Source of the DNA: Candidatus Binataceae bacterium
GTDB lineage: Bacteria; Desulfobacterota; Binatia; Binatales; Binataceae
Assembly: GCA_049281755.1 (NCBI GenBank)
Contig: JBAPSR010000073.1
Location: forward strand, 1-43,793
Length of the DNA: 43,793 nt
Direction of reading: 5' to 3'
This document shows, in pieces, positions 16,094-41,210 of this stretch (positions are counted from its first letter, which is position 1; every line of letters begins with the position of its first letter). The translations under genes and the position numbers were made by a program. The notes below the pieces were generated by a model. It had not been told where the DNA came from, did no database searches, and worked only from the letters and a program-made list of their open reading frames with translations.

Positions 16094-16327
16094 TAACCGA
16101 CGGCTCGTGGAATCATTTCCTGGGTGCCTGGAAATCCTCCCCGACCGAGTGGGAGCCGTTGATATTCTCGTAAACCGTCCGTTGTTGTCCTGAGCTGTAG
16201 GCGAAGGATGACGGACAAGAGCGTCGAAGCTTCCATTCTCCGCTACGTACTGCGCGTGTGGATTACCGTTCAGTCGCGTTCGGCAGCTAGTCGTCCTCCC
16301 CAATCGGGCGAGGCATAATCTGGCGTC

Positions 16328-18142
16328 ATGCAACCAACAAGCGCGGTCCACCCTGAGCCGCTTCTGATCTATGACGGTGATTGCGGGTTCTGCATCTACT
16401 GGGTGCGTTATTGGCAGCAACTCACCGGCCATAAGGTGGCATACGCGCCGTACCAGGAAGTTGCCGCACAACATCCAGAGATTGCGCTGGCCGCGTTCCG
16501 GCGTGCCGTTCAATACGTCGCGCCAGATGGAAAAATCGGGAGCGGCGCCGAAGCCTGTTTTCTCGTTTTAAGTCACGCAAGCGGTAAAGGCTTGTGGCTG
16601 ACGCTCTATCGGCATCTTCCCGGTTTTGCGGCAATCGCAGAGTGCATGTACGCTTTCGCCGCTTCGCACCGCTCCGCGCTTTACCGACCGAGCCGGTGGT
16701 TGTGGGGACGCGACTATGCGCCGCCACGCTTCGATCTGATTTCCTGGTTATTTCTGCGAGCGATGGGGCTGATCTATTTTGCCGCCTTTGTTTCATTTGG
16801 CGTGCAGGCGTTGGGTCTAATCGGGGGCCACGGCATCCTGCCGTTATCCGAGTTCACCTCCGCCATCCGGAGCCAGCTCGGCCCGGAAGGCTACTGGCGG
16901 TTTCCGATGGTGTTCTGGCTGGACCAAAGCGATTTTGCGATACAGGCGGTGTGTTGGGCCGGGGCGGCACTGTCGCTGTTCCTGGTCTTCAACCTTGTGC
17001 CGCGTTTGAGCTTGTTTTTTCTCTATGCGTTTTATCTCTCTCTCTTTTACGCCGGTCAGATTTTTATGGGCTTTCAGTGGGATTCGCTCCTGCTCGAAAC
17101 TGGCTTCCTTGCGCTGATTCTGAGTATGGCAACAAAGCCGGGCGTATGGCTGCTGCGCTGGCTGCTGTTTCGTTTCATGTTTCTTTCGGGTTCGGTCAAG
17201 CTACTGAGCGGCGACCCTACATGGGCGAATCTCTCGGCGCTCTCCTACTATTTTCAGACCGAGCCGCTACCGACGCCGCTGGCGTGGTACGCCCATCACC
17301 TGCCGCACGCCGTCCTGACGGCGGCAACGGCGGCGACCTTTGTGATTGAACTGGGGCTGCCGTTTTTGATTTTCTTTCCGCGGCGGCTCAGGTTCGTCGC
17401 GGCGTTCGGAATTTTGTTGCTGCAGGTGGTGATTCTCCTGACCGGCAACTACACTTTTTTCAATCTTCTGACGATGGCGTTGTGCCTGGTGTTGTTCGAC
17501 GACGCTGCGATACGCAAGGTTCTTCCGGATCGCCTGGCTCGGTTCGTTCACGGCCGCGTTGGGGACCTCAAGCCTCGGAAGATCGTTTCTGTTGCCGCCG
17601 GAGCGTTTGCGTTACTGATCGTGTTCGCTGGTTTTGCACAGATTCATGCGATGTTCAGCGGCCGAATCTCAGCGCCGGCCAAGTGGATCAACCATGAAAT
17701 TGCGCCACTGCGTATCGTCAATTCATATGGTTTATTTGCGGTGATGACCACCGCCCTGCCGGAAATTATTGTCGAGGGCTCGGATGATGGCGTTCACTGG
17801 CGCGAATACGGGTTCAAATACAAACCGGGCGACGTCATGCGACGACCGCTGTGGAACTTTCCGCATCAGCCGCGCCTGGACTGGCAGATGTGGTTTGCCG
17901 CTCTGGGGACGGAGTCGGAAAGTCCCTGGTTCCCGCTGTTCTTGCAGCGCTTGCTGGAGAATTCACCAAAGGTGACAGCTCTGCTCGGCAGCAATCCGTT
18001 CCCTGACAAACCTCCGCTTTATGTGCGGGCGTTGCTTTACGATTATCGTTATTCCAGCCCTAAAGAAAAAGAACAGACCGGCGCATGGTGGGTGCGGCAG
18101 CCGGAAGGAATTTATTTTCCTGCGATCGGTCTCGGGTCGTGA
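16328..18142 (+). CDS. fusion: DCC-type thiol-disulfide oxidoreductase (DUF393) + lipase maturation factor (LMF/HTTM-like) polytopic membrane domain
   Basis: N-terminal 'LLIYDGDCGFCIYWV' (DCC CxxC motif). Then about 10 hydrophobic helices and the LMF signature 'HQPRLDWQMWFAAL'. Confidence 0.7.
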   Translation: MQPTSAVHPEPLLIYDGDCGFCIYWVRYWQQLTGHKVAYAPYQEVAAQHPEIALAAFRRAVQYVAPDGKIGSGAEACFLVLSHASGKGLWLTLYRHLPGFAAIAECMYAFAASHRSALYRPSRWLWGRDYAPPRFDLISWLFLRAMGLIYFAAFVSFGVQALGLIGGHGILPLSEFTSAIRSQLGPEGYWRFPMVFWLDQSDFAIQAVCWAGAALSLFLVFNLVPRLSLFFLYAFYLSLFYAGQIFMGFQWDSLLLETGFLALILSMATKPGVWLLRWLLFRFMFLSGSVKLLSGDPTWANLSALSYYFQTEPLPTPLAWYAHHLPHAVLTAATAATFVIELGLPFLIFFPRRLRFVAAFGILLLQVVILLTGNYTFFNLLTMALCLVLFDDAAIRKVLPDRLARFVHGRVGDLKPRKIVSVAAGAFALLIVFAGFAQIHAMFSGRISAPAKWINHEIAPLRIVNSYGLFAVMTTALPEIIVEGSDDGVHWREYGFKYKPGDVMRRPLWNFPHQPRLDWQMWFAALGTESESPWFPLFLQRLLENSPKVTALLGSNPFPDKPPLYVRALLYDYRYSSPKEKEQTGAWWVRQPEGIYFPAIGLGS

Positions 18143-21533: not shown

Positions 21534-24479
21534 ATGCCCGAATATCTCTTTCAATTTGAGGATTTTTCGCTGGACCGCGGCGCTTGCGAGTTGCGCCGGG
21601 ACGGCGCGGTCGTACCGCTCCAGCGCATCCCGCTGGAGTTGCTTTGCCTGTTGGTCGAGCGCCGTGGACGGCTGGTTACGCGCGAGGAGATTCTGGAACG
21701 CGTCTGGGGCAAGGACGTTTTCGTCGATAGCGAGGCGAGCATCAACACCGCTGTGCGGAAACTCAGGCGCGCTCTGCGCGACGATTCCGAGACGCCGAGA
21801 TTTGTCGCTACCGTGCCGGCCAGGGGCTATCGGTTCGTCGCGGAGATTCGAGGCCGACAGAGCGGCAAAACCACGCAGCCTCGATCGCGTCCGCCGAGTG
21901 TGCTGGTGGGACGTGGGCGCGATCTGGCTTCGTTACTGAGCGGAATCGACGATACGGCCTCGAGTCGCGGACGCCTGTTTCTGATTTCCGGCGAGCCCGG
22001 GGTCGGCAAGACCAGGTTGGCGGATGAGGTCGCGGCCGCGGCTGAGGCAAAGGGGATGGCGCTGCTGATTGGGCATTGCTCCGAGCACGACGAGGCGGTT
22101 GCCTATCTGCCGTTCGTGGAAGTTCTCGAGAACTTCGTCGGCCGCACGCCGGATCGGGAACTTCTTCGCATGGCGCTCGGAAACGAGGGGCCGGAGCTGA
22201 CGCGCTTGTTGCCCAAGCTCAAGAGCATTTTGCCGGACCTCCCGCCGCCGCTCGATTTGCCGCCCGCCCAGGCTCGGCGTCATTTGTTCAATTGCTTTTT
22301 CGATTTCACCGCGCGGATCGCTTCGCAGCAGCCGACGCTTATGATCCTCGACGATCTTCACTGGGCCGACGATTCGACCTTGTCACTGCTCGATCATCTG
22401 ACGCAGCGGCTTTCCGATCTGCCCCTGATGATCATCGGCACGTACCGCGACGTTGAGCTCAACGTCACTCGAGGGTTGGCAAAAACGCTGGAAGGTTTGC
22501 TCCGTCGACGGCTCGCAACTCCGGTGAGCCTCAAAGCCCTGCCACGCGAGGAAGTGGGCGCGATGCTTGCGAGCCTGAGCGGGAAATCGCCGCCAGCCGC
22601 CGTGGTGAGCGCGATTCATGCCGAGACCGGAGGCAATCCATTCTTCGTCGAGGAACTGTTCCGCCATCTCGAAGAGGAAGATCGCTTGTACGACTCGTCG
22701 GGGCAGTTTCTGGCCGAGCTCAAGATTGGCGAGCTGGAGGCGCCGCCGAGCGTTCGATTAGTCGTCGCGCGCCGGCTGGCGCGACTTGGCGGCCCGACCC
22801 AAAAGATGCTCGCGACCGCCGCGACCGTCGGGCTTTTCTTCAGCTTCGAGCTGCTTCAGGCCTCGAGTACGGCCGATGCGGACTCGCTTCTGGATTGTAT
22901 CGAAGAAGCGGAACGTGCCGGGCTGGTCTTCTCGGTAGCGGACCGTCCTAAAGCCCGATTTAAGTTCTCTCACGAGCTTATTCGGCAAGCTGTGATCGGC
23001 GGTTTGTCGGCGGCGCGGCGCCAGAGGCTTCATCTCGAGCTGGCCCGTGCGATCGAGCGAACCTATTCGGATGAACCGATCCATGCGGAGAGGCTCGACG
23101 ACCACTTGGCGGAACTTGCCTACCATTACGCGCGCGGCGGCGACCCGGCCAAGGCGGCGAAGTACTGCTTGAATGCGGTCAGGAGGTTCGCGTACCTCGG
23201 CTCCAATGCCGAGGCGATCGCGCAATCGCAAGCCGGGCTTGAACTGCTGCGAGACCTCCCCGATGACGACCGTCGCGCGGAAACCGAGTTGGACTTGAGG
23301 AACGCAGCCTTCGCGCCGCTGGGCGACAGCAAGGGATACGCCTCGCCTGAAGCCGAGCGGTCGTATATCCGCGCACTCGAGCTTTGTCAGCGGCCCGGTA
23401 TCAAATGGCAAAAGGCTTGGTGGGCGCTCTGGGCGATTTTTTTCGCTCAACAGCTCCGACCCGACGTGCGCAAAGCGGAAACCATTGCTGCGGAGCTGGT
23501 CGCTCGAGCCGAGGAACACGGAAATCTCGGATATCTTGCGGAAGCGGAGACCTGGTTGGCGTACACCAGGATGGTTTCGGGCGACTTTGAGCTCGCTGCC
23601 CTTGGCTTCGATCGGGCGTGGGCGCGCATGGAATCGATGGTCGGCCCCACGCCTCTGACGCATCAGCGCGCGCTGCAAACGCCGCACCTCCTGATGACCT
23701 GGGACTCCGGCACTCAACAAAACAACCGTGTTCTATCAGGATGGAACGCATGGTTCATGGGTTATCCAGATCGCGCGCAGGCACGAATGACGATCGCGAC
23801 AGCGATAGCGCAATTCGGGCCAAAGACAATCATGGCGGACATACACGGATTCGCCTCCTACATTGGCGAGCTCCGCCACGAACCCGAGCAAGTGAAAGCG
23901 AACGCGCAGGCAAGACTGGCGCTATCAACCGAATCGGGCTACTTCACCGGCCGCGCCCTGAGCGAAATTTATCTCGGGTGGACGGATGCGATCGGGGGCG
24001 ACCTCGACGGCGGTATCGCGCGAATGAAGCGCCACATGCTCGAGTTGAAGGCCGTCGGCTCCGAATATATCAGCGACCGCTATTTCTCCTTTATTTCCAC
24101 CGCGCTCGGCCATGAGAAGCGGTTTGATGAGGGTCTTGGCGCGATCGACGAGTCATTTCAGTTCCTCGAGAGGACCGGCCAACAGTTCTACGAGGCGGAG
24201 CTCCATCGGCTCCGGGGCGAATTGCTGCTGGCGCAGGATCCGTCGGGTTTCGCGCAGGCGGAGAAATCCATCCGCACGGCGATCGAGATTTCTCGCAGGC
24301 AGCACGCGAAATCATGGGAGCTGCGCGCGACTACAAGCCTTGCGCGGTTGCTGGCGAAGCAGCGCAAGCGTGACAAGGCGCGCAAGATGCTTGCCGAAAT
24401 TTTCGACTGGTTCACTGAAGGCTTTGACACTGCGGATCTAAGGGACGCGAAAACGCTCCTTGATGAATTGAACCGATAG
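21534..24479 (+). CDS. large transcriptional regulator: OmpR/CadC-type winged-helix DNA-binding domain + AAA/P-loop NTPase + TPR-like C-terminal region
   Basis: N-terminal 'FEDFSLD...VPLQRIPLELLCLLVERRGRLVTREEILERVWG...ARGYRFV'. Walker A 'GEPGVGKT'. Walker B 'LMILDDLHWAD'. About 550-aa helical repeat C-terminus. Confidence 0.8.
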   Translation: MPEYLFQFEDFSLDRGACELRRDGAVVPLQRIPLELLCLLVERRGRLVTREEILERVWGKDVFVDSEASINTAVRKLRRALRDDSETPRFVATVPARGYRFVAEIRGRQSGKTTQPRSRPPSVLVGRGRDLASLLSGIDDTASSRGRLFLISGEPGVGKTRLADEVAAAAEAKGMALLIGHCSEHDEAVAYLPFVEVLENFVGRTPDRELLRMALGNEGPELTRLLPKLKSILPDLPPPLDLPPAQARRHLFNCFFDFTARIASQQPTLMILDDLHWADDSTLSLLDHLTQRLSDLPLMIIGTYRDVELNVTRGLAKTLEGLLRRRLATPVSLKALPREEVGAMLASLSGKSPPAAVVSAIHAETGGNPFFVEELFRHLEEEDRLYDSSGQFLAELKIGELEAPPSVRLVVARRLARLGGPTQKMLATAATVGLFFSFELLQASSTADADSLLDCIEEAERAGLVFSVADRPKARFKFSHELIRQAVIGGLSAARRQRLHLELARAIERTYSDEPIHAERLDDHLAELAYHYARGGDPAKAAKYCLNAVRRFAYLGSNAEAIAQSQAGLELLRDLPDDDRRAETELDLRNAAFAPLGDSKGYASPEAERSYIRALELCQRPGIKWQKAWWALWAIFFAQQLRPDVRKAETIAAELVARAEEHGNLGYLAEAETWLAYTRMVSGDFELAALGFDRAWARMESMVGPTPLTHQRALQTPHLLMTWDSGTQQNNRVLSGWNAWFMGYPDRAQARMTIATAIAQFGPKTIMADIHGFASYIGELRHEPEQVKANAQARLALSTESGYFTGRALSEIYLGWTDAIGGDLDGGIARMKRHMLELKAVGSEYISDRYFSFISTALGHEKRFDEGLGAIDESFQFLERTGQQFYEAELHRLRGELLLAQDPSGFAQAEKSIRTAIEISRRQHAKSWELRATTSLARLLAKQRKRDKARKMLAEIFDWFTEGFDTADLRDAKTLLDELNR

Positions 24480-24516: not shown

Positions 24517-25638
24517 TTGAAAAGTGTTGCGGGGACTATCGCCAGTTTTCTTTTCGTCCTGATCGCGGCGGGCTGCACCGGTTCCGCGTCGGGGCAGCCG
24601 GACTATACCAGCAAAGTCGATCAGCTCATCGATTCCGCGCAGACTTCTAACAACATTCCGTCAATCTGCGTCGCGATCGGAAGGAAAGGAAATGTCACGT
24701 ATACGCACTGTGCGGGCTTGATCGACCTCGAGAACAAGATTCCTGCGACTCCCAACTCGATCTATCAAATCGCGTCGGTGACCAAGCAATTCACCTCGGC
24801 GGCGATCATGATGCTGGCGAATCAGAATCCGCCCGCACTATCGCTGACCGATCCGGTCTCCAAATACGTTCCGGAGCTGGCGACTGATCCCGGGATTACG
24901 ATCGAATCGTTGATGAACATGAGCGCGGGGCTCGTCGACTACGTCACGTTGCCCGAGGCCCCGCAATGGTTCAGCGGGGTCGCGCCGCTGACGGTGATCA
25001 ACGCGCTCGCGCCGCTGCCGCTTGGCTTTCCGAGCGGAACTGCCTTTGAATACGTGAACAGCGATCCGTTCGTGCTCGGCGTGGTAATTGAAAATATAAC
25101 CGGCATGTCCTATGGCGACTTTATTCAGAGCAAACTCCTCGCACCCAACGGCCTGACCTCAACCACCTATGGGCCGTCGCCGACGGGAGCCAACGCGGTC
25201 GGATATACCCGCGACGATTCCGGCAATCTCGTTCGCGCCTTAGTGATCGATCCGAGCGCAACCTTCGCTGCCGGCGCGCTCAGCTCTGACGTAACGGATA
25301 TTGTGAAATGGGACGGGCTGCTCCTGGGCGGAAAAATACTGCTCGCCAAGGAGGTCCGTCAGATGACGACGCCGCCGCCGATCACCGGCTCCAGCCATTC
25401 CGAACCTTCGGTATACGGGTACGGACTGGTAGCGACCGATCTCTATGGACGTCCGATAGTGATGCATGGAGGCGGCGTGCCGGGATTCAACAACATCACG
25501 TCGACTTTCACCGATACCGGATGGTCCATCTCGGTGATGTCCAATATCGACAAGCGCGACTACATAGCCGACGGACTCTGGCGTGAGATCCTCGATACGG
25601 TTTGCACGCCGGGCAGTCCCTTCAGGCCGGAGTGCTAG
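24517..25638 (+). CDS. serine hydrolase, beta-lactamase/PBP4*-like family, lipoprotein
   Basis: TTG 24517 lies 6 nt after GGAGA. Lipobox 'IAAGC'. Motifs: 'SVTK' (SxxK), 'YVN' (YxN), 'HGG' triad. Confidence 0.75.
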   Translation: MKSVAGTIASFLFVLIAAGCTGSASGQPDYTSKVDQLIDSAQTSNNIPSICVAIGRKGNVTYTHCAGLIDLENKIPATPNSIYQIASVTKQFTSAAIMMLANQNPPALSLTDPVSKYVPELATDPGITIESLMNMSAGLVDYVTLPEAPQWFSGVAPLTVINALAPLPLGFPSGTAFEYVNSDPFVLGVVIENITGMSYGDFIQSKLLAPNGLTSTTYGPSPTGANAVGYTRDDSGNLVRALVIDPSATFAAGALSSDVTDIVKWDGLLLGGKILLAKEVRQMTTPPPITGSSHSEPSVYGYGLVATDLYGRPIVMHGGGVPGFNNITSTFTDTGWSISVMSNIDKRDYIADGLWREILDTVCTPGSPFRPEC

Positions 25639-25823: not shown

Positions 25824-26390
25824 ATGACCGGGAAGCAAAGCTGGATCAACCTCAGGTGCCATCCGTCGACACGCTCTGAAACGGTGCGCGCCATTCAGGT
25901 GCTCGTGCGCCGCACGGCGAGCGCCGAACTCCAGATGACCTTCCGCCTCGACGGAGACATTTCTCGAATCTGGTTGTCTTCGCCGGGTGTACCGCGTATC
26001 GCTGAGCAACTTTGGCGCCACACCTGTTTTGAAGCGTTTATCGCAGTGGAAGGATCTCCAGCGTACCACGAGTTCAACTTCGCCCCGTCGGGCGAGTGGG
26101 CAGTTTACGCCTTCTGCAGCTATCGTAACGGCAGTCTTCTCTCGAACGATGCGATGCGTCCGCAAATCGCAGTGCACTTTACCGGTAGTAGGCTCGATCT
26201 GGATGCCCTTGTCCGGCTCGATCTCCTTTCTAACATCCACGGGCGCGCTTCGCTGCACGTCGGGGTCTCGGCGGTCATTGAGGCAAGCGATGGGCTCTCG
26301 TACTGGGCGCTTCGTCATTCGGTCGACAAACCCGATTTTCATGACGCCAATGGATTCGCCATGCTGCTTGAGCCGCCAGGCTCCAAGTAG
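25824..26390 (+). CDS. DOMON-like / CBM9-like domain protein
   Basis: 'LWRHTCFEAFI...YHEFNFAPSGEW...YWALRH...KPDFH' matches the pattern of bacterial DOMON-like proteins, recalled from memory. The start is uncertain: ATG 25824 versus TTG 25752. Confidence 0.5.
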   Translation: MTGKQSWINLRCHPSTRSETVRAIQVLVRRTASAELQMTFRLDGDISRIWLSSPGVPRIAEQLWRHTCFEAFIAVEGSPAYHEFNFAPSGEWAVYAFCSYRNGSLLSNDAMRPQIAVHFTGSRLDLDALVRLDLLSNIHGRASLHVGVSAVIEASDGLSYWALRHSVDKPDFHDANGFAMLLEPPGSK

Positions 26391-26409
26391 TAGGTCTCGA
26401 CCTCTTCCG

Positions 26410-27126
26410 ATGAAGCACTCGCAACCACGAGGTCTCTACAGGCGGCGTGTGGAGCAGCTTCTATCTAAAACGAAGTATGACCGTTCCGCCGGTAGCCGAA
26501 TTGAGGTTCTCTCCCGCCACTTCCTTGGACATTCCTACCAACCAAATCCGCTGATTGGATCGGCCGACACAATCGAGGTGTTCACGGCGGCGCTCGATGG
26601 ATTCGATTGTGTCACGTACATCGAAACAATTTTGGCTCTCGCGCGCGCCTGCACCGTTGAAGACTTCATCGAGTGGCTGCGAAAGATTCGGTATGAACAA
26701 GGCCGGATTCAATGGAAACAGCGAAATCACTACATGACGCTCTGGATTCGCAACAACGTACGCCAGGGTATAATCAGGCGGGTTTCAACGCTGGCCGTAC
26801 CGATACTCAGTAGAGAACGCGTTCTGAATGTCGTACCAGGACTCGCTGCACGGCGGACTCGTGTGAAATATGTACCAAAGCGGGCAGTGCATCGGCTGGC
26901 AGCCTATCTGCACAGCGGTGATTTGATCTTTTTCGTGTCCACACGCAAGAATCTTGACGTCTTTCATGCCGGAATCATCGTGCGCGACGGCAAAAGAGTC
27001 CTCATGCGTCACGCGTCGCGCAGCCAAGGCTCTGTCGTGGAACAGGAACTGAGCGAGTTTCTCAAGACAAACCGGATGGCCGGTGTGATTGTGACGCGGC
27101 CACTAGACGCGACGCATCGCGATTAG
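26410..27126 (+). CDS. DUF1460 (N-acetylmuramoyl-L-alanine amidase-like) domain protein
   Basis: ATG 26410 lies 19 nt after the upstream stop; the 379-aa ORF-track version overlaps the DOMON gene out of frame. Blocks 'FDCVTYIETILALA', 'GDLIFF', 'HAGIIV' resemble DUF1460. Confidence 0.55.
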   Translation: MKHSQPRGLYRRRVEQLLSKTKYDRSAGSRIEVLSRHFLGHSYQPNPLIGSADTIEVFTAALDGFDCVTYIETILALARACTVEDFIEWLRKIRYEQGRIQWKQRNHYMTLWIRNNVRQGIIRRVSTLAVPILSRERVLNVVPGLAARRTRVKYVPKRAVHRLAAYLHSGDLIFFVSTRKNLDVFHAGIIVRDGKRVLMRHASRSQGSVVEQELSEFLKTNRMAGVIVTRPLDATHRD

Positions 27127-27190
27127 CAACTAAGTTGATGCGTTTATCAACGAGGCGAACTCCTTCCTCGGATAGAGGAGATGGCGCGAA

Positions 27191-28480
27191 GTGTCGGGGT
27201 CGAAGGTGAGCATCATCTATCCAAAGGACTATTCGTCCGCGAGTATTCAGAGAGTTCTGGATGCCGCCGACTCCGAAGTGCTATTTCTCGGCGATCCGCG
27301 TGTGACTATCGAGCCTGGACCGCGCATGTTCGATCGGATGGCTCAGGTCATGCACGAAACCGGCGCCGGCTGGGTTTATGCCGACGCGGTGAGCCATCCT
27401 CGTATCGACTATCAAAGCGGCAGCATCCGCGATGGGTTCGATTTCGGCCCAGTAGTCGGCGTGTCGGTTCGAGCCGCGCGTCAGTCAGGAATCGACAGCG
27501 CCTGGAAATGGGGAGGACTATACGACCTACGGTTGAGGATTTCTCAACAGCACGCCATCGTGCGGATTCCCGAACCATTGTACAGCGCGTCGATGGTTGA
27601 TGCCCGGCCGCCAGGTCAACAGCAATTCGACTATGTGGATCCGCGCAATCGCGATTACCAAATCGAAATGGAGCGAATCGCGACCGCGCATCTAAAGCGA
27701 ATCGGCGCCTGGTTGCAGCCGTATTTCGAGAAAGTTACAGCCACGGCAGAAACATTTCCGGTGAAAGCCAGCGTCGTCATACCGGTTCGGAATCGCGAGC
27801 CGACAATTCGAGACGCCGTTCAAAGCGTCCTCGCCCAGAGCGTTGATTTTGAATTTAATGTGATCGTGGTCGATAACCATTCGACGGATCGAACGACAGA
27901 AATCTTGCGTGGCATTAGCGATTCGCGTGTCAAACACATCGTTCCAGAACGCCGGGACTTGGGAATCGGCGGATGTTGGAACGAGGCGATCTATTCCAGG
28001 GACTGCGGACAATACGCCATCCAACTTGATTCTGACGACCTGTACGTCAATGACGGTGTCATTCGCCGGATCGTCGCAGAGCTTGAAGCGGGCCCTTATG
28101 CGATGGTCATAGGCTCCTACACGATGGTCGATTTTTCGCTGAAGGAGATTTCACCCGGTCTCATAGACCATCGCGAGTGGAGCCGCGAGAACGGAAGAAA
28201 TAATGCGCTCCGTGTCAATGGTTTGGGCGCGCCGCGCGCATTCAATACCTCGGTTTTGCGCCGTATCGGATTTCCGAATGTCAGCTATGGCGAGGATTAC
28301 GCCGTAGCGCTCCGCATCAGCCGCGATTACGAGATCGGCCGGATTTACGACTCGGTTTATCTTTGCCGCCGTTGGGAAGGCAATAGCGACAGCGCGTTGC
28401 CACTCGAGGTTGCGAATCGGTACGATTCGTATAAGGACTGGCTCCGAACTACCGAGATGCAGGCGCGGATCCGGGGATGA
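27191..28480 (+). CDS. family-2 glycosyltransferase with ~190-aa N-terminal extension of unknown function
   Basis: GT-A core: 'ASVVIPVRNREPTIRDAVQSVLAQS', 'VIVVDNHSTDRT', 'QLDSDDLY' (DxD). GAGGAG lies upstream of GTG 27191. Confidence 0.8.
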   Translation: MSGSKVSIIYPKDYSSASIQRVLDAADSEVLFLGDPRVTIEPGPRMFDRMAQVMHETGAGWVYADAVSHPRIDYQSGSIRDGFDFGPVVGVSVRAARQSGIDSAWKWGGLYDLRLRISQQHAIVRIPEPLYSASMVDARPPGQQQFDYVDPRNRDYQIEMERIATAHLKRIGAWLQPYFEKVTATAETFPVKASVVIPVRNREPTIRDAVQSVLAQSVDFEFNVIVVDNHSTDRTTEILRGISDSRVKHIVPERRDLGIGGCWNEAIYSRDCGQYAIQLDSDDLYVNDGVIRRIVAELEAGPYAMVIGSYTMVDFSLKEISPGLIDHREWSRENGRNNALRVNGLGAPRAFNTSVLRRIGFPNVSYGEDYAVALRISRDYEIGRIYDSVYLCRRWEGNSDSALPLEVANRYDSYKDWLRTTEMQARIRG

Positions 28481-29370
28481 TCCACGAACTGGAAGATCTG
28501 TTTGAGCGGCAGACGCGGACATGGCCGCAGCTCGCGCAAGGTATTGAAGGCCTGGCGCGGGCGAAAACACGGCCGGTACGGATCGACTGGTTCGACATTT
28601 TCATCCGCCACATTCCCCATCGCTTGGGCAGTACCACTGCTTCGGTCGACCGGGAGTCGGTTGCGAACCGGCCCTGTTTCTTATGTGCAGGAAATCTTCC
28701 TCCAGAGGAGGAAGGTGTGCGGTTTGATGAGGATTTCACGATCTACTGCAATCCCTTTTCAATCGTGGATCGTCACCTGACGATCGCCCACAGGAAACAT
28801 GGTTCGCAGCGCATCGCGAATCAGTTTGGAACAATGTTGGCCCTTGCTGCGGCGTTGCCGGGATATTTCGTCATCTATAACGGTCCGGAATGCGGGGCGT
28901 CCGCACCAGACCATATGCACTTTCAGGCAGGCTCGCGAAGATTGTTTCCGATCGAGAAAGACACCGCCGGACTGACTGGCATCGCCGTGCCGAACTACGG
29001 AAGAAATGTGCTCTTGTTTCGTGAAACGGATCGGTCTGCTTTGATCCGTCGAATGGATCGCGCCCTCGACCTGCTCGCGGAAATGACCGGCAAACGCGCA
29101 GAACCGATGGTCAATATTGCGGTCATTCATCAGAAAGGAGAGTGGGTCACGTATCTGTTCCCGCGAGGAAAACACCGGCCAGAGGTCTTCCACACAGGCG
29201 AACTGACGGTGAGTCCGGCATCGATTGATTTGTGTGGAATATTGGTTGTGCCTCTGGCACAGGATTTTGAAAGAATCACGGCGGACGCGATTGTCGCAAT
29301 TTTCCGAGAGGTCACTTTGCCTGACGGTCAGTTTCAGGAAGTCGCCAAGAAACTGGAGGCTGAGCGTTGA
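28477..29370 (+). CDS. DUF4922 / GDP-hexose phosphorylase-like HIT-superfamily protein
   Basis: ATGA overlap with the GT2 stop. 'APDHMHFQAG' is the HxHxQ motif of the GalT/VTC2 branch of the HIT superfamily. The 'CFLC' region lies upstream. Confidence 0.6.
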   Translation: MIHELEDLFERQTRTWPQLAQGIEGLARAKTRPVRIDWFDIFIRHIPHRLGSTTASVDRESVANRPCFLCAGNLPPEEEGVRFDEDFTIYCNPFSIVDRHLTIAHRKHGSQRIANQFGTMLALAAALPGYFVIYNGPECGASAPDHMHFQAGSRRLFPIEKDTAGLTGIAVPNYGRNVLLFRETDRSALIRRMDRALDLLAEMTGKRAEPMVNIAVIHQKGEWVTYLFPRGKHRPEVFHTGELTVSPASIDLCGILVVPLAQDFERITADAIVAIFREVTLPDGQFQEVAKKLEAER

Positions 29371-30587
29371 ACGTATCTGTAGGCCTGATGGAAAGGCAAT
29401 CCGCGGTTGAAGTGGAATTGATCGGCAGGTTTACGGACACTTCCGGCAAGCCGTACATTTCCGGGCGCTACAGATTTGCTTCTGAAGTGACGCTTACTGC
29501 GTCGGACCTGGCAGTGTGCGCGTTTGCGCTGGACGACGTCACGATCGGAATTGGATTTCATTGGGAACGCAAGGAGCGCCAGGTATTCCGTGGAGCTCTT
29601 CGCCTCATAAAACGAGAAGCCGGTCTGACGGTGATTAATGATGTTTCGCTCGAAGAGTACGTCACCAGCGTGATTTCATCTGAGATGAGCGCGTCTTGTC
29701 CTCTCGAACTGCTGAAAGCTCACGCGGTGATTTCGCGCAGCTGGCTGTGGTTTCCAAAAGCAACTCCCTCTGCGCCCGAGAAAAGACAGAGTCAGGCTCT
29801 CGATTCTCACGAAATTCTTCGCTGGTACGGGCGCGAAGCGCATCCGGATTTTGATGTGTGCGCCGACGACCACTGCCAGCGCTATCAGGGCATCACGAAA
29901 ATGTTCTCAGCGGCTGCAGCTGACGCGGTTCGCGCTACCGCCGGCGAGTTTCTCCGTTACCACGGCGCTATCTGCGACGCCCGGTTTTCCAAGTCCTGCG
30001 GCGGAATAACCGAGCGCTACGCGACCGCTTGGGAAGATCAGGATATTCCCTATCTCAGATCTGTTTACGACGGTGCGGCACAATCGCGCGCTTACAGTCC
30101 TGAAACATGGATCCGCTCGAGCCCGGAGGCTTACTGCAATACGGACGATTCGGAGCTCCTCTCACGCGTTCTCCCGGGGTTCGACCAGGAAACCCGCGAT
30201 TTCTTTCGATGGAAGGTCGCCTACACGCCCGAAGAACTCGCCGATCTGATCTGTTCGAGGATTGCCGTGGACCTTGGTCCGATTCGCGACATGCAGGCAG
30301 TCGCCCGCGGACCTTCAGGCCGGATATATCGGCTGAAGATCATCGGCACACGCGATCACGTCACCGTCGGTAAAGAACTGGAAATTCGCCGGGCTTTGTC
30401 GCGCACGCATCTCTACAGCTCTGCATTCGTCGTAGACAACGAGTCTGGCCGTTTTGTCTTGAGAGGAGCCGGCTGGGGACATGGTGTCGGCCTATGCCAG
30501 ATCGGCGCGGCAGTTATGGCAAACGAGGGCAAGCCCTACTCAGAAATCTTGCAGCATTACTATCGTGGAACCACCGTTAGCGTTTGA
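29367..30587 (+). CDS. SpoIID/LytB domain protein (peptidoglycan lytic transglycosylase / amidase enhancer family)
   Basis: TTGA overlap with the upstream stop; an alternative ATG is at 29388. Motifs: 'VISRSWLW', 'DVCADDHCQRYQG', 'FSKSCGGITE', 'GWGHGVGLCQIGA'. Confidence 0.8.
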   Translation: MNVSVGLMERQSAVEVELIGRFTDTSGKPYISGRYRFASEVTLTASDLAVCAFALDDVTIGIGFHWERKERQVFRGALRLIKREAGLTVINDVSLEEYVTSVISSEMSASCPLELLKAHAVISRSWLWFPKATPSAPEKRQSQALDSHEILRWYGREAHPDFDVCADDHCQRYQGITKMFSAAAADAVRATAGEFLRYHGAICDARFSKSCGGITERYATAWEDQDIPYLRSVYDGAAQSRAYSPETWIRSSPEAYCNTDDSELLSRVLPGFDQETRDFFRWKVAYTPEELADLICSRIAVDLGPIRDMQAVARGPSGRIYRLKIIGTRDHVTVGKELEIRRALSRTHLYSSAFVVDNESGRFVLRGAGWGHGVGLCQIGAAVMANEGKPYSEILQHYYRGTTVSV

Positions 30588-30632: not shown

Positions 30633-31124
30633 TTACCTGAGTGGCGGCAACGCGATTGGATCAGGAAGTTGCGACGCGGGCCAGGGGCGGTTGTGCTTCG
30701 CCGCGATCTCGCCGACGACACGCTCCCAGCGCTCCTTCCCGAAGCTCTTGTAGGTCTGGAACGGATTGACGTATTCGCGCATGCGAAACGCCCGATCGTT
30801 TCTGATCGTGATCAGGGTGAAATAGCGCTGCGTATAGCGGCCGCCGTCCACGGTATCGCCACCGCCTGATGATTCCACGATGGTGGTATCCGGATCGGCT
30901 GTGGGATACACCGCCGCCGGCTTTGTGCTGAAACGCGGAACCACGCTCAGCAGAAATTCCATAAAACGGCTCACCGCCTCGAACCCGATCAGCGTCACCG
31001 GGATCTCGAACGTCGGACCCTCCCAGATGGCGTCCTCGTGCAGGGCATCGAGCCAGATGGCGCGCTGTTCTTCCAAGGTGGTGATCTTGCCGCCGAAGGC
31101 GTCACCGAGGTTCTTCCGGGCCAT
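30633..31124 (-). CDS. NTF2-like (SnoaL/PhzA-B-like) small protein
   Basis: 163-aa ORF of the size and alpha+beta pattern typical of NTF2-fold proteins; no diagnostic motif. It lies directly downstream of the BVMO on the same strand. Confidence 0.4.
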   Translation of the reverse strand: MARKNLGDAFGGKITTLEEQRAIWLDALHEDAIWEGPTFEIPVTLIGFEAVSRFMEFLLSVVPRFSTKPAAVYPTADPDTTIVESSGGGDTVDGGRYTQRYFTLITIRNDRAFRMREYVNPFQTYKSFGKERWERVVGEIAAKHNRPWPASQLPDPIALPPLR

Positions 31125-31209
31125 GGGCTGTCTCCTTTGCGCGTCTTACTAGAACGATTTCCTCGCGTCGATAGTGCAACAAAGATGAAAGGGTGGAAAC
31201 GACACGCGC

Positions 31210-31231
31210 CGCCGTCCAGATCGGGACGGCG
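31210..31231 (-). terminator. possible terminator hairpin downstream of the BVMO gene
   Basis: CGCCGTCC-agatcg-GGACGGCG forms an 8-bp GC stem. The T/A-rich flanks are weak on both strands. Confidence 0.3.
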
Positions 31232-31263
31232 CGCTTTCTTGGAAAAAACGTTAGGCTCGCTGC

Positions 31264-33084
31264 TTAGCTCAACTCGAGGCCTTCGAGGTCACCCTTCTCG
31301 CGCCACTTCTTCATCAGCGCGTTGAACGCGTTGATGCCCGGCGCATACGCGTTGGCGCCAAAGCCGTCGGACCCAGGTTCGAAGTGGCCCTCGTTGTTGT
31401 AATATCCAGGCGTGCAGTTCGCCAGGAAGCGCGCCGCGACCACCGCGAGGCGTTTGATTTCGGCGACCCACTCCGTCTCTGCTTCTTTAGTCGGCTGCGA
31501 GTAGCGAACCCCCCGGTTCATCACCTGTTTGATGATGTAGCCGATGTGCTGGGCCTGGTCGTCCAGGACCGAGGTCAGGTTGACCGAAGCGCCGTTCTGC
31601 GACTGCCCCAGGATGAAGCAGTTGGGGAAGCCGTGACTGGAGAAGCCATGGTAGGTCTTCATCCCGCCGGTCCAGTAATCGGTCAAGGTGACGTCGTTCA
31701 TGCCGATGACTTCGTAGCCCGCGCGCCGAGTCCATGCTGTGCCGACCTCGAATCCGGTGGCGAAGATAATGCAATCGACGGGGTACTCGATGCCGTTCGC
31801 AACGATACCGGTCTTGGTGATCCGCTCAACGCCCTGGCTGTCGCTGGTGTTGATCAGCTTGACGTTCGGTCGGTTGAAGGTTGGCAGATAGTCGTCGTTG
31901 AACGTCGGCCGCTTGCAGAACTGGCGGTACCAGGGCTTCAGTGCCTCGGCAGTGGCCCGATCGGCGACGGTTTGGTCAACCCGTGCGCGGACGCCGTTCA
32001 TTTTCTGAAAGTCGGCGATTTCCATGAGCATCGCTGTCTGGCGCTTCGAGAGTTCGGCTGCGCGGGCGGACTTTTTCGCCGCGACGCCGAGGTTACGAAA
32101 GATGTCGGTCCAGCCATCGTTGACAAGGTCTTTTTCGACCGGAACGCCGATAACCATGTTGTTGAAGTTCTCGCGCCGCTCTCGCTGCCATCCAGGCTTC
32201 AGATTCTTGGCCCATTCGGTATCGGTTGGTTTGTTTCCCCGCACATCTACTGACGAGGGGGTGCGCTGGAAGACATAGAGTTGCTTGGCGTGCGCGCCGA
32301 CGAACGGCACGCATTGGATGGCGGTAGCGCCGGTGCCGATTACCGCCACGCGCTTATCTGCGAGCTTGGTCAGGCCGCCCGAGTGGTCGCCCCCGGTGTA
32401 GTCATAATCCCAGCGGCTGGTATGGAAGGTGTGGCCCTCGAAGTCAGCGATGCCAGGGATTGCGGGCAATTTTGGTCGGTTTAGAGGACCGGTAGCCATA
32501 ACCACGAAACGGGCCCGCATCGCATCGCCACGGTCGGTCGAGACGATCCAGCGCGCGACATCCTTGTCCCAGCGCAGTTCCGACACTCGCGTTTGGAAAC
32601 ACGCCTTGTCGTATAGGTTGTAGTGTTTTGCGATACGCCGCGAGTGCTCGTAGATCTCGGGTGCGAAGGAATACTTCTCCTTCGGCATGTAGCCGAGCTC
32701 TTCGATCAGCGGCAGGTAGCAATAGCTTTCGATGTCGCACTGGGCGCCCGGATAGCGATTCCAGTACCAGGTGCCGCCGAAGTCGCCGCCGGACTCAATG
32801 ATTCGAACGTCGTTGATACCGGCCTCGTGGAAACGCGCGCCGGCCAGCAATCCGCCGAAACCTCCCCCGATAACTACCACATCGATCTCGTCGGTCAGCG
32901 GCGCGCGATCAAAAGGTTTCACATAAGGGTCGTCCAGATAGTGAGCGAACTTGCCGGCCACTTCGACGTATTGCGCATTGCCGTCGGTGCGAACGCGCTT
33001 GTCACGCTCCTGCTTGTATTTCTCGCGCAGGGCGTCCGGATCGAAATCCAGCTTCAGGTCAGCGATAAAGGTCGAATCTTCCAT
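31264..33084 (-). CDS. type I Baeyer-Villiger monooxygenase (FAD/NADPH-dependent)
   Basis: 'VVVIGGGFGGL' (FAD GxGxxG). 'GGTWYWNRYPGAQCD'. BVMO fingerprint 'FEGHTFHTSRWD' (FxGxxxHxxxW[P/D]). Second Rossmann motif 'VAVIGTGATAIQ'. Confidence 0.9.
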   Translation of the reverse strand: MEDSTFIADLKLDFDPDALREKYKQERDKRVRTDGNAQYVEVAGKFAHYLDDPYVKPFDRAPLTDEIDVVVIGGGFGGLLAGARFHEAGINDVRIIESGGDFGGTWYWNRYPGAQCDIESYCYLPLIEELGYMPKEKYSFAPEIYEHSRRIAKHYNLYDKACFQTRVSELRWDKDVARWIVSTDRGDAMRARFVVMATGPLNRPKLPAIPGIADFEGHTFHTSRWDYDYTGGDHSGGLTKLADKRVAVIGTGATAIQCVPFVGAHAKQLYVFQRTPSSVDVRGNKPTDTEWAKNLKPGWQRERRENFNNMVIGVPVEKDLVNDGWTDIFRNLGVAAKKSARAAELSKRQTAMLMEIADFQKMNGVRARVDQTVADRATAEALKPWYRQFCKRPTFNDDYLPTFNRPNVKLINTSDSQGVERITKTGIVANGIEYPVDCIIFATGFEVGTAWTRRAGYEVIGMNDVTLTDYWTGGMKTYHGFSSHGFPNCFILGQSQNGASVNLTSVLDDQAQHIGYIIKQVMNRGVRYSQPTKEAETEWVAEIKRLAVVAARFLANCTPGYYNNEGHFEPGSDGFGANAYAPGINAFNALMKKWREKGDLEGLELS

Positions 33085-39317: not shown

Positions 39318-39842
39318 CTAATGTTCCTCGCCGCGGAGCCTTAGAATTGTATAATAGATGACGAGTAAGACGAAAGGCACGGAAATGACCATTCCAGGGC
39401 CAACGATATGAAGGCTTGCGATCATCAGTCCTAGCCAGAGAATAGCGAGTGTGAGTCGAACTTCGTCGCTACGCCGCTCCCATACGATCCCGATCCCAAG
39501 CAACAGCGGGCTGAGTGCAAGGAATCCGTAAAACTCTCCAAATCTGACTGATAGGGCGGTTTCCGCGACGAAACCTGCGAAAGACACCGTGGCCGCCACT
39601 GGTTTTAGAATGAAATCTTGATCAGGGCGTGACCCTCTAGGCAAATCTAGGATGAACCCAAATAACATAACGAGATGCCAATAGTAAAGATCCACACAAG
39701 CAGCTTCAAAAAGTGCTTCGATACTCATCCTGCTGCCAGATTGAACCCACCCGACGAGCGCGATCGCGAGTCCCACAACCGCGCCCGGCAGCAAGAAGTA
39801 TTTAAGCCATTGACGCAGGATTGCCGCTGTATCAGAAGTCAT
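39318..39842 (-). CDS. polytopic (~6 TM) membrane protein, unknown family
   Basis: ATG 39842-39840 overlaps the TGA (39841-39839) of the YD-repeat fragment as an ATGA junction. Six hydrophobic segments. GC is clearly lower: 54% and 41% in two hand-counted 100-nt samples. Confidence 0.55.
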   Translation of the reverse strand: MTSDTAAILRQWLKYFLLPGAVVGLAIALVGWVQSGSRMSIEALFEAACVDLYYWHLVMLFGFILDLPRGSRPDQDFILKPVAATVSFAGFVAETALSVRFGEFYGFLALSPLLLGIGIVWERRSDEVRLTLAILWLGLMIASLHIVGPGMVISVPFVLLVIYYTILRLRGEEH

Positions 39843-40473
39843 CGAGAGTTGATCAACCTCTTCCACGTGGCCGTTGGCATAGCGGCCGGCAGATTTACCG
39901 CCGCCAGACTGCCGCCGAGACTGTTTACCCGGCCATCGTTGTCATAACCGTAGGTGAGGTTGCCCAGCGTGCCCCCGCCTGTGCTGCTGTAGCTTATCGA
40001 AGTCGGATGCGAGTCCGCGTCGTACTGGTTGTAGTTGACCGTAACTCCATTCGGAAGCGTGAGGGCGGTGTAGCGGCCGTCGGAATCGTATGAAATGCCC
40101 ACGCTCTGCGCGCCCCGGCTTTCCGAGGTCAGGTGATTGTCCTTGTCGTAGCCATAGCTTGTTTGCGCCTGACTTCCCGCGGTCATCGTCAAGCGGTTCT
40201 GATCATTGTCGTAGGTGTAGGTGACGGTGTTGTTCAGCGGGCTCGACGCATAAGAGGCCGTGAGCATGTCATCCAGCCCGTCATAAGTCGCGGACAGTGT
40301 GTCAATCACGCTCGACGTTCCCTGATTATCCTGCGCGCTGGTCAGGCGGTTTCCGCCGTCGTAGGTATAGACGGTTCGGGTCTGATTGTAGCCCTGTTTA
40401 TTGGTGGTGTTGTAGCTCGCTTCCGTCAGCCGGTTAAGCCCGTCGTAGGTGAAGCCCGAGGTGAGGTTGCGCC
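39839..40473 (-). pseudogene. 5'- and 3'-truncated RHS/YD-repeat protein fragment
   Basis: Eight YD repeats, including 'FTYDGLNRLT', 'YTYDGGNRLT', 'YTYDNDQNRLT', 'YGYDKDNHLT', 'ISYDSDGRYT' and 'YGYDNDGRVN'. No N-terminal domain, no PxxxxDPxGL core end, no toxin domain. The first 38 codons of the 249-aa ORF are antisense to an AKR fragment. Confidence 0.75.
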
Positions 40474-40611
40474 CGCGCGCGAAACATTCTGTTGATTCCC
40501 GGTACATCGTCGATTCACCATTTACGAGAGAATCTCGAGGCGGCGGCGCTGCAACTCTCTCCCGATACAATCGCAGAACTCGACGCAATCGCGATCGGCC
40601 CTAAGGGGTAG
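40474..40611 (+). pseudogene. displaced aldo/keto reductase 3' fragment (contains copy 2 of the 120-nt repeat)
   Basis: Translates in frame as 'NILLIPGTSSIHHLRENLEAAALQLSPDTIAELDAIAIGPKG*', compared with 'NILLIPGTSSLHHLRENLEAATLQLSPETIAELNAIA' in the intact gene. There is no upstream coding part. Confidence 0.85.
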
Positions 40612-40623
40612 TCCCCTGAAGGG

Positions 40624-40938
40624 GTTGTCGATGCCTGCGAAAATTCAGCTGGATCAGGCTTACGGCTTCGACGGACCGATCCCCGTTACCAAGGTGAGAA
40701 TTGCGACGCCAATGTGAAGGCGGCGCGGATGGTGTACGATTTCGCCGCGGCCAACCACGCGAAGCCCGGACAGATCGCCCTCGCATGGCTGTTGCAGAAA
40801 GGCTAGGACATGGCGCCGATTCCCGGCACCAAGCGGCGCAAATATCTTGAGGAGAATCCCTCGGCTCCGGGGGCACATCTCTCCAGGCGGATGCATGGCG
40901 ATGATCTGCAGATCTGTCGCCCTAAGAATCGAAGGTAA
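40624..40938 (+). pseudogene. second aldo/keto reductase 3' fragment (different AKR subfamily) with in-frame stop
   Basis: Frame reads '...[62 protein letters not shown]...'. TAG at 40804-40806 interrupts conserved AKR C-terminal blocks. The N-terminal two thirds are missing. Confidence 0.75.
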
Positions 40939-41110
40939 ATGCGTGGCGATGATTCGCGGACCGAGCAGATTCGCGCCCGGATAGGTTTTGCGCGATTCTG
41001 CCGATTTGCGCCGCCCAATGCGCTCTCCGGGTCTGCGTGGATCGCGAATCGCGCGCACACGCGCGGTTTGCGAACGATTCTCCGCGATGTCCGAAAATCG
41101 AGAGACTGGT

Positions 41111-41186
41111 TGGTGGAGCAGAAGGGATTTGAACCCTCGACCCCCGCGTTGCGAACGCGGTGCTCTCCCAGCTGAGCTACTGCCCC
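41111..41186 (-). tRNA. tRNA-Ala (anticodon CGC)
   Basis: Reverse complement: GGGGCAGTAGCTCAGCTGGGAGAGCACCGCGTTCGCAACGCGGGGGTCGAGGGTTCAAATCCCTTCTGCTCCACCA. It folds as a cloverleaf with a G3:U70 Ala identity pair, anticodon loop TTCGCAA, TPsiC loop TTCAAAT and an encoded CCA. Confidence 0.95.
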
Positions 41187-41210
41187 ATCCTGTCCGGAGA
41201 TTGGTAGTGA

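Follow-up and report, generated by a model that had tools for sequence, protein, structure and literature searches.

Here we analyze a 43.8-kb window of DNA from a Candidatus Binataceae bacterium of the Candidatus Binatus group (contig JBAPSR010000073.1, positions 1 to 43,793) and describe a cassette of five co-directional open reading frames (ORFs), which spans 25824-30587 on the forward (+) strand. The five genes, referred to as g1 to g5, encode a DOMON/CBM9-like protein, an AmiA-like amidase, a two-domain GT2 glycosyltransferase, a DUF4922 protein and a SpoIID/LytB-like protein. The last three form a GT2-DUF4922-SpoIID triad that recurs in several phyla. We consider it likely that this module carries out the salvage of peptidoglycan fragments in the cytoplasm. 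The explanation that we favor as a whole, a cytoplasmic operon that processes peptidoglycan fragments imported in recycling or scavenging, we hold with slightly better than even confidence. The best reading of the substrate is imported, peptide-free N-acetylglucosamine-(anhydro)N-acetylmuramic acid (GlcNAc-(anhydro)MurNAc).

The cassette is compact. g1 (25824-26390, +; 188 amino acids (aa)) and g2 (26410-27126, +; 238 aa) are separated by 19 nucleotides (nt), and g2 and g3 (27191-28480, +; 429 aa) by 64 nt. The next two junctions are overlaps of 4 nt: g3 and g4 (28477-29370, +; 297 aa) share ATGA in GGGATGATCC, and g4 and g5 (29367-30587, +; 406 aa) share TTGA in GCGTTGAACG. A convergent gene starts 46 nt beyond g5. 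These coordinates and overlaps agree with those of the initial annotation, which was made from the DNA letters alone, and the layout bears out its view of a single, tightly packed operon. The arrangement is far beyond chance, with an identical order in dozens of genomes from several phyla.

A profile of diverse DUF4922 proteins gave at least 593 genomic matches. For the neighborhood comparison we used 80 loci with 10-kb flanks, whose ORFs were searched with the window proteins. The GT2 gene, including its N-terminal domain, lies directly upstream of the DUF4922 gene in 67 of 73 testable loci, and the SpoIID gene lies directly downstream in 50 of 75; SpoIID occurs anywhere in the locus in 62 of the 80. 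Of 69 testable loci, 53 have all three genes, and these cover no fewer than four phyla, namely Binatota, Acidobacteriota, Bacteroidota and Ignavibacteriota; a Planctomycetota locus (L065) has the GT2-DUF4922 pair only. Gene fusions that arose independently all keep the order GT2, DUF4922, SpoIID. They comprise GT2-DUF4922 proteins (P0159, P0178 and P0265), DUF4922-SpoIID proteins (P0254, P0264 and a single 760-aa ORF of the isolate Carboxylicivirga linearis, L067) and a triple fusion of all three (P0207). The suggestion that a SpoIID-DUF4922-GT2 core is a conserved module has thus held up. Of the five-gene set proposed along with it, three to four genes travel together elsewhere, and the complete five are specific to Binataceae. 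Of 9 Binatota loci, 8 have an AmiA-like gene no more than 4 kb away, as do 15 of 19 Acidobacteriota loci, but this gene accompanies the triad in only 4 of 37 Bacteroidota loci. g1 precedes the cassette in 8 of the 9 Binatota loci and occurs in no other group of the 80-locus set.

Two further observations concern the DUF4922 family. In P0212, a GNAT acetyltransferase is fused to DUF4922, which is reminiscent of the acetyltransferase and uridylyltransferase logic of GlmU and, by this analogy, hints that the substrates of DUF4922 may be derivatives of N-acetylhexosamine (HexNAc). A 2.4-kb contig binned as 'Terriglobales' (L005, JBAWBE010000091.1) carries a DUF4922 gene 80% identical to that of Binataceae and is probably mis-binned Binataceae DNA.

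Four of the five domain calls of the initial annotation pass curated hidden Markov model thresholds; the DOMON/CBM9 call stands as a predicted fold only. g2 matches PF07313 (AmiA-like/DUF1460, NlpC/P60-type) with an E-value of 3e-44 and 151 bits against a cut-off of 27, which points to an N-acetylmuramoyl-L-alanine amidase, and its relatives in the PDB are 2p1g, 2im9 and 4h4j. Residues C67, H186 and H201, kept in at least 90% of 28 homologues, match the Cys-His-His triad defined for DUF1460 (PMC10318531). The Bacteroides AmiA of the same family converts GlcNAc-1,6-anhydroMurNAc-peptide (GlcNAc-anhMurNAc-peptide) into GlcNAc-anhMurNAc and a stem peptide, and the B. uniformis enzyme has specificity for GlcNAc-1,6-anhydroMurNAc-peptides (PMC4600125). 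The same product, GlcNAc-anhMurNAc, is expected of g2 and would fit the genes downstream. Unlike the Bacteroides enzyme, which is proposed to be periplasmic, the copies of Binatota, including g2, and most of those of Acidobacteriota carry no signal peptide.

The glycosyltransferase g3 consists of two domains. PF00535 (Glycos_transf_2) matches aa 194-333 only, with an E-value of 4e-22 and 79 bits, and the C-terminal domain (27761..28480, +) is a predicted catalytic GT2 of the inverting GT-A type, in which D280-S-D-D283 and E368-D369 are invariant among 53 sequences. More than 8000 clusters of GT2 homologues exist. The whole of g3 is unusually conserved, with 47-63% identity across the phyla sampled. 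The N-terminal domain (27191..27760, +; aa 1-190) had been described as about 190 aa of unknown nature. It indeed has no Pfam family, but a GT-A-like fold can now be assigned to it. hhalign aligns it with the C-terminal domain at a probability of 64% and an E-value of 7e-5, and the AlphaFold model of g3, with a predicted local distance difference test (pLDDT) score of 82, can be superposed along its two domains on K4CP, the tandem GT-A chondroitin polymerase of E. coli K4 (E 1e-17, 464 columns). K4CP, the best structural match, and Pasteurella heparosan synthase 2, also among the matches, are like g3 soluble two-domain GT-A proteins.

The N-terminal domain accompanies the GT2 in 67 of 67 loci and carries the conserved motifs YSD and HPxIDYQxGSxRDDFxFG. 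We asked whether it could be a second active transferase and rejected this candidate; the fold fits, but the DXD motif is missing, and no acidic residues occupy its position. In Binataceae the domain is about 50 N-terminal aa shorter than elsewhere, and the missing part is the nucleotide-binding half. Since the domain lacks DXD and is truncated in Binataceae, we regard it, on the strength of the model, as probably a degenerate second GT-A-like domain with a binding or regulatory role. In this respect g3 differs from K4CP and heparosan synthase 2, as it probably has no second transferase site.

g4 matches PF16269 (DUF4922) with an E-value of 3e-50, and PF26216 (GDPGP1_C) is present in close homologues at 80-90% identity according to precomputed annotation. 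The HxHxQ motif 'HMHFQ' that had been picked out in this protein is located at H146-M-H148-F-Q150. A set of 81 sequences keeps C67 and C70 (CxxC), H108, H146, H148 and Q150 at a level of at least 95%, and the CxxC...H pattern is presumably placed as in GalT. The family profile matches the Ap4A phosphorylase Apa2 (4i5t) with the HxHxQ motifs aligned. Judged by its motifs, g4 is predicted to be a nucleotidyl-transferring enzyme of HIT branch III, the group of GalT, Ap4A phosphorylase and GDP-hexose phosphorylase. The only characterized DUF4922 proteins are the eukaryotic GDPGP1 and VTC2, which are nucleoside diphosphate (NDP)-hexose phosphorylases (PMC7041677). g4 has the same DUF4922 plus GDPGP1_C architecture and the same HxHxQ nucleophile motif; however, its family is bacterial, distantly related and partnered with a dedicated GT2.

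g5 is matched by PF08486 (SpoIID; E=4e-24, 85.4 bits against a cut-off of 23) and by TIGR02669 (SpoIID/LytB; 175.8 bits against 83.3), as expected of a lytic-transglycosylase-like protein. In the alignment with 4rwr (E=5e-23), E106 is aligned with the glutamate of 'VASEM', the S/A-E-M catalytic motif. Among 58 sequences, E106 and H159...C165-A-D-D-H169-C170-Q show a conservation of 95% or more, so that g5 carries the Cys/His cluster of the family (V-C-x-D-x-H-C-Q-x-Y). In the C. difficile SpoIID structure this motif is reportedly a Zn site. With their predicted catalytic sites intact, all four enzymes from g2 to g5 look active.

We next consider where these proteins would work. Hydropathy analysis, with a 19-aa segment above 1.8 on the Kyte-Doolittle scale as the membrane criterion, found no hydrophobic N-terminus or membrane segment in g1-g5, and the same check found none in 70 GT2, 80 DUF4922 and 64 SpoIID ORFs of the loci, nor in the 58-81 homologues compared for each core family. 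Because the module proteins carry neither signal peptides nor membrane segments, we place them in the cytoplasm and do not assign them to wall remodelling. The fusion of SpoIID to nucleotide-sugar enzymes likewise suggests cytoplasmic work on soluble fragments. The initial annotation had suggested the remodelling, decoration or recycling of cell-wall glycan, which can be read as a system outside the cytoplasm in which SpoIID and the amidase would remodel, decorate or trim the sacculus. Its precedents are real. N-terminal signal peptides are carried by the characterized SpoIIDs of B. subtilis and Waddlia, which work on the sacculus, and a periplasmic location is predicted for the chlamydial ones (PMC6635528). 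Moreover, lipoprotein signals occur on the AmiA-like proteins of Bacteroidota and of a single Acidobacteriota locus, and the SpoIID gene of Tannerella forsythia is annotated as 'amidase enhancer precursor' (PMC5388701). Signs of such an extracytoplasmic location are nevertheless absent here, as neither g5 nor its homologues have a signal or anchor. SpoIID also stands in one polypeptide with DUF4922 and GT2, which need nucleotide sugars and phosphate and hence the cytoplasm, and start and stop codons overlap with those of cytoplasmic-enzyme genes. We therefore regard action on the sacculus as very improbable. The SpoIID clade of the triad is predicted to be cytoplasmic, unlike the characterized exported SpoIIDs. 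What stands of the earlier link to peptidoglycan is a tie to recycling specifically, not to the wall itself.

The comparison with the SpoIID/SpoIIP (DMP) engulfment machinery and with chlamydial SpoIID is instructive in another way. The SpoIID fold, the catalytic glutamate and the Cys/His motif are shared, and in DMP an amidase strips the peptides first and SpoIID then acts on the peptide-free glycan (PMC6635528). SpoIIDs cut peptide-free glycan, and one is able to use water as acceptor (PMC6635528). Those proteins, however, are membrane-anchored or secreted and work on the sacculus, whereas the cassette clade is free of export signals and fused to cytoplasmic enzymes, and the cassette amidase is an NlpC/P60-type AmiA and not SpoIIP.

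The tie to recycling comes from other phyla. In 37 Bacteroidota loci, whose neighbors were counted by ORF clustering followed by profile scans, an AmpG-family muropeptide permease is present in 26, a large secreted Amidase_3 protein in 26, a BadF/MurK-like kinase in 15, and MurQ, which is the etherase for MurNAc-6-phosphate, in 14. AmpG, NamZ, MurQ or MurK shares the locus with the module in 29 of the 37 and also in the Planctomycetota locus L065. In B. graminisolvens (L039) the order is SSF transporter, amidase, metallophosphoesterase/beta-propeller, GT2, DUF4922, SpoIID, AmpG and NamZ. L065 comes from a metagenome-assembled genome. Its GT2-DUF4922 genes share the stretch 6700-14477 with a NagZ-like gene of family GH3, a gene for an AmpG-like permease in convergent orientation and one for a GHL10 protein, and the 20-kb locus contains no SpoIID. 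This locus shows that the GT2-DUF4922 pair occurs in a recycling context without SpoIID.

Two gene families of these loci are not discussed in the T. forsythia papers cited here. One is a secreted fusion of GH9 and polysaccharide deacetylase, found in 14 of the 37 loci (L062:12579-15050 and 13 others). The other is a protein of about 950 aa with flavin adenine dinucleotide (FAD)-oxidase and iron-sulfur (Fe-S) parts, found in 12 of the 37 and in one Ignavibacteriota locus (e.g. L059:16571-19501), which possibly oxidizes the D-lactate freed by MurQ. We also notice that triad-adjacent AmpG homologues of Bacteroidota (e.g. L055:14732-16405) have an insertion of about 170 aa between the transporter halves, owing to which their score falls under the family cut-off. 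The periplasmic domain of A. baumannii AmpG1 binds the lytic transglycosylase Slt (PMC13507758).

In T. forsythia, Tanf_08345-08385 ('xanthan lyase'-gtf-gtf-lytB-ampG-namZ1-murT-murK-murQ) form one transcript, which includes ampG, namZ1 and murTKQ and is activated by GppX (PMC5388701). Here the order GT2, a second 'gtf' (DUF4922 by synteny) and SpoIID/LytB is that of our cassette, and this order with its neighbors recurs in at least 26 Bacteroidota loci. AmpG, NamZ1, MurT, MurK and MurQ of the operon have been characterized (PMC5388701; bioRxiv 10.1101/2021.12.02.470905), while the two 'gtf' genes, Tanf_08350 and Tanf_08355, are described as having no known function, and for Tanf_08360 ('LytB') the role of lytic transglycosylase is only putative (bioRxiv 10.1101/2021.12.02.470905). 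The window differs from this operon, as ampG, namZ and murTKQ are not nearby and a cytoplasmic AmiA-like amidase and a DOMON/CBM9-like protein are added; its host, moreover, is a free-living soil member of Binataceae and no MurNAc auxotroph.

These papers change how novel the cassette appears. The statement of the initial annotation that no pathway is assigned was too strong, since the syntenic Tanf_08350, Tanf_08355 and Tanf_08360 are published within a GppX-regulated muropeptide-scavenging transcript, and because the module already lies in a published recycling operon, it is less novel than was thought. Its claim that the core enzymology is uncharacterized agrees with the T. forsythia papers, and our search of the literature found no characterized GT2-DUF4922-SpoIID triad. 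The pathway context is already published; the biochemistry of the module is new ground.

It can also be asked whether the link to peptidoglycan is an indirect one. In such a case, GT2 and DUF4922 would be a pair for nucleotide-sugar quality control or glycosylation, and SpoIID a non-lytic subunit for sugar binding or regulation. GDPGP1 reportedly polices the NDP-sugar pool, going by the references listed in PMC7041677, and some loci have the GT2-DUF4922 pair and no SpoIID. In its first description the T. forsythia operon was labelled glycosylation-related, and S-layer glycoproteins are affected as well when GppX is lost (PMC5388701). On the other hand, the catalytic glutamate and Cys/His motif of SpoIID are conserved at the level given above, and in two phyla the operon is joined by an amidase whose Bacteroides relative acts on anhydromuropeptides. 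The recurrent neighbors are AmpG, NamZ and MurQ, whereas genes of polysaccharide export (Wzy_C, Poly_export) were met at a single Binataceae locus, L081, in a flank that is not conserved. We judge an indirect link to be quite improbable.

For cytoplasmic salvage, we can draw a specific sequence of reactions, from anhydro sugar to glycoside, to NDP-sugar and to sugar-1-phosphate, which we offer tentatively and think rather unlikely to be right in its details. Anhydromuropeptides would enter via an AmpG encoded elsewhere in the genome, and g2, or in Bacteroidota the secreted amidase, would remove the stem peptide to leave GlcNAc-1,6-anhydroMurNAc. The DOMON/CBM9-like g1 may bind the sugar substrate. 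From this disaccharide, now free of peptide, the triad would then make activated sugars, and neither NagZ nor AnmK would be needed. The SpoIID-like enzyme would open anhydroMurNAc onto a 4-OH acceptor, or onto water, so that either a beta-1,4 glycoside of MurNAc or MurNAc itself would form; such a step would be the microscopic reverse of the lytic transglycosylase reaction, and the chemistry of the 1,6-anhydro bond is the speciality of this enzyme type. The inverting GT2, running in reverse with a nucleoside diphosphate, would yield an alpha-NDP-HexNAc, and the DUF4922 enzyme would convert NDP-sugar and phosphate into alpha-sugar-1-phosphate and NDP. GT2 and DUF4922 would be the tightest pair in this scheme because they would share the NDP-sugar. 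As nucleotide and acceptor would be recycled and thus act catalytically, the net reaction would be an energy-conserving phosphorolysis, thermodynamically like that of ordinary glycoside phosphorylases.

The stereochemistry of the scheme is self-consistent: 1,6-anhydro (beta), beta-1,4 glycoside, inverting glycosyltransferase, alpha-NDP-sugar, alpha-sugar-1-phosphate. A variant in which SpoIID takes phosphate as acceptor, as an 'anhydromuramate phosphorylase', was rejected on known stereochemistry, since it would yield a beta-1-phosphate, while GalT-type enzymes and UDP-MurNAc use alpha. The proteobacterial recycling pathways (AmpG-AmpD-NagZ-AnmK-MurQ or AmgK-MurU) resemble the scheme in that the peptide is removed from GlcNAc-anhMurNAc-peptide in the cytoplasm, where g2 would take the role of AmpD, and the sugars are returned to metabolism. 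In contrast to them, the cassette lacks a NagZ of family GH3, an anhydro-sugar kinase and the NTP-transferase MurU, and no sugar-processing enzyme is homologous; what it has instead is a protein of lytic-transglycosylase fold, a transferase of GT-A type and a nucleotidyl enzyme of HIT type.

The main rival to the salvage explanation runs the same enzymes in the biosynthetic direction. DUF4922 would make an NDP-sugar from a sugar-1-phosphate, GT2 would build a beta-linked HexNAc/MurNAc glycan, and SpoIID would cleave it to a 1,6-anhydro sugar, for example as a cytoplasmic anhydromuropeptide-like signal or for the disposal of surplus UDP-MurNAc. The course from NDP-sugar through glycoside to anhydro sugar is thermodynamically favored, the gene order and the fusions suit it equally, and so do the apparently intact catalytic sites. 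Furthermore, the closest structural relative of the GT2 is a bifunctional polymerase, K4CP, with heparosan synthase 2 beside it; the DXD-less N-terminal domain, though, speaks against a two-site polymerase. The neighbors in Bacteroidota and Planctomycetota (AmpG, NamZ, MurQ, the kinase and GH3) are genes of uptake and catabolism, and both characterized DUF4922 enzymes are phosphorolytic. T. forsythia cannot make MurNAc and has no AnmK, and to produce anhMurNAc would waste an essential nutrient. We consider the biosynthetic direction unlikely.

Several points weigh against cytoplasmic salvage or against its proposed chemistry. The 43.8-kb window contains no AmpG, NagZ, MurQ or other recycling gene, and none lies near the triad in the Binatota and Acidobacteriota loci, so that in these phyla the link depends on the presence of the AmiA-like gene and on the module's homology to that of Bacteroidota. 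The absence of signal peptides is read from hydropathy and not from a dedicated predictor, and Tanf_08355 is identified as the DUF4922 gene by synteny and annotation and not by sequence comparison. In several Ignavibacteriota loci and in L065 the GT2-DUF4922 genes have no SpoIID nearby, so the pair can evidently work without it. We found no precedent for the reversal of a lytic transglycosylase or for the physiological reversal of a GT2, and the thermodynamics of the scheme work only if the products are drawn off. The missing DXD in the N-terminal domain of the GT2 makes a two-site mechanism doubtful.

g1 has no Pfam or NCBIfam match at E <= 0.01. Its AlphaFold model is a beta-sandwich of moderate confidence (pLDDT 74, predicted template modelling (TM) score 0.76). 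The best Foldseek match is 4jpq (BACUNI_03838, a putative carbohydrate-binding protein of Bacteroides; E 3e-6, TM 0.63), and further matches are 2ivf_C (the DOMON-like EBDH gamma subunit), 7nwo and 1i82, CBM9 modules among them, with E-values of 3e-6 to 8e-4 and TM scores of 0.51-0.63 overall. The NCBI name of a protein 98% identical to g1 is 'DOMON-like'. g1 is a Binataceae-specific accessory protein and, judging from this fold, a probable binder of sugar at the reducing end.

The start of g3 is ambiguous. A Shine-Dalgarno-like AGAGGAG (27174..27180, +), read from the sequence, lies 10 nt 5' of the GTG at 27191 and is not kept in all relatives. An in-frame GTG at 27206 aligns with the start of the relatives, and with it the g2-g3 gap would be 79 nt. 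The spacer between g2 and g3 (27127-27190) contains a perfect hairpin with 6-bp arms, GTTGAT-GCGTTT-ATCAAC. We rejected it as a conserved operator, because it lies within a stretch of about 45 nt found in only 3 of 9 Binataceae sequences; the window, L007 and L008 have the stretch, and L001, L002 and L006 lack it. As this stretch is a variable insertion, g3 may start at 27206 and not at 27191. Promoter and terminator scans were uninformative, with counts not above those of shuffled sequence, and for known RNAs or riboswitches upstream of the cassette Rfam gave only a distant tRNA. None of the five proteins matched a PADLOC model of anti-phage defence, and membership in a defence system was rejected.

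The cassette had also been suspected of being acquired, on a remark about the GC content at 28601-28700. That stretch is 58% GC, and 38% of all 100-nt windows have 57% or less, so the remark is uninformative. Horizontal acquisition as judged by GC was rejected, since the cassette is no outlier among the ORFs: its GC is 56.0% and its GC at third codon positions (GC3) 0.60-0.68, against 59.8 +/- 3.0% and 0.70 +/- 0.065 for the other ORFs of the window. No flanking repeats or mobile-element genes were found around it, and orthologues 76-90% identical are present in all sampled Binataceae. Within this family, in comparison with L081 and L001-L010, the cassette alone is syntenic, and both flanks differ even where the DUF4922 relative is 90% identical.

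Upstream of the cassette, by 185 nt, lies a gene for a lipoprotein (24517-25638, +; lipobox LIAAGC) of the class-C beta-lactamase/DD-peptidase family (D-aminopeptidase/AmpH-like). It is suggestive of cell-wall peptide metabolism and does not adjoin the cassette in any other Binataceae locus. It is preceded by a gene for a 981-aa regulator (21534-24479, +) that combines a winged helix of OmpR type with an AAA_16 STAND ATPase and TPR repeats and has a long, sub-threshold match to the TOMM kinase/cyclase fusion family. On the other side, at 30633-33084 (-), a SnoaL-like protein is encoded beside a Baeyer-Villiger-type flavin monooxygenase, which closely resembles the pentalenolactone D synthase PtlE (E 1e-235, 783 bits, under the 1100-bit equivalog cut-off); the two may be a small unit of secondary metabolism or oxidation.

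Farther away, 39321-41247 (-) contains an RHS-repeat fragment (39842-40600) and two unannotated ORFs around tRNA-Ala (41111-41186, -), one of which is the lowest-GC ORF of the window (52.8%); the region looks like the remnant of a polymorphic-toxin or island insertion. At 5873-7513 (+), an N6/N4 DNA methylase is followed by a low-GC (53.2%) ORF without a family match, which may be an orphan or degraded restriction-modification pair. A 607-aa fusion at 16319-18139 (+) joins a DCC1-like thiol-disulfide oxidoreductase to lipase-maturation-factor (LMF1) domains; LMF1 is better known in eukaryotes.

To our knowledge, peptidoglycan recycling is mechanistically understood almost only in Proteobacteria and Firmicutes. 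The triad, by a single peptide pattern, is present in at least about 590 species-level genomes from several phyla, including major groups of the gut, the mouth and the soil. For a cell-wall specialist, it would be surprising that a SpoIID-type lytic transglycosylase is confined to the cytoplasm, and surprising too that a glycosyltransferase and a GDP-hexose-phosphorylase-like enzyme are its obligatory partners, in some cases within one fused protein. The chance that new enzymology is at work here is modest; it would consist of a cytoplasmic and possibly reversible lytic transglycosylase together with a reverse glycosyltransferase and an NDP-sugar phosphorylase. We put forward, as a speculation of rather low probability, an ATP-independent route in which lytic-transglycosylase chemistry runs backwards in the cytoplasm and regenerates UDP-MurNAc/MurNAc-1-phosphate and UDP-GlcNAc/GlcNAc-1-phosphate. 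In it, the 1,6-anhydro bond of imported anhydroMurNAc would serve the SpoIID-type enzyme as glycosyl donor, and the reverse GT2 and the GDPGP1-like phosphorylase would follow.

T. forsythia grows on GlcNAc-anhMurNAc without AnmK (PMC7670621), and it lacks glmS, glmU, murA and murB (PMC5790795). If true, the reverse route would explain how AnmK can be dispensed with when anhydromuropeptides are used by Tannerella and by many Bacteroidota, Acidobacteriota and Binatota, and it would also explain the synthesis of the Tannerella wall without GlmS/GlmU and MurA/MurB. The candidate genes adjoin ampG in T. forsythia, which is genetically tractable. If the module feeds precursor pools, it would bear on the release of muropeptides by gut Bacteroidota, and hence on host NOD signalling, and on susceptibility to fosfomycin and beta-lactams.

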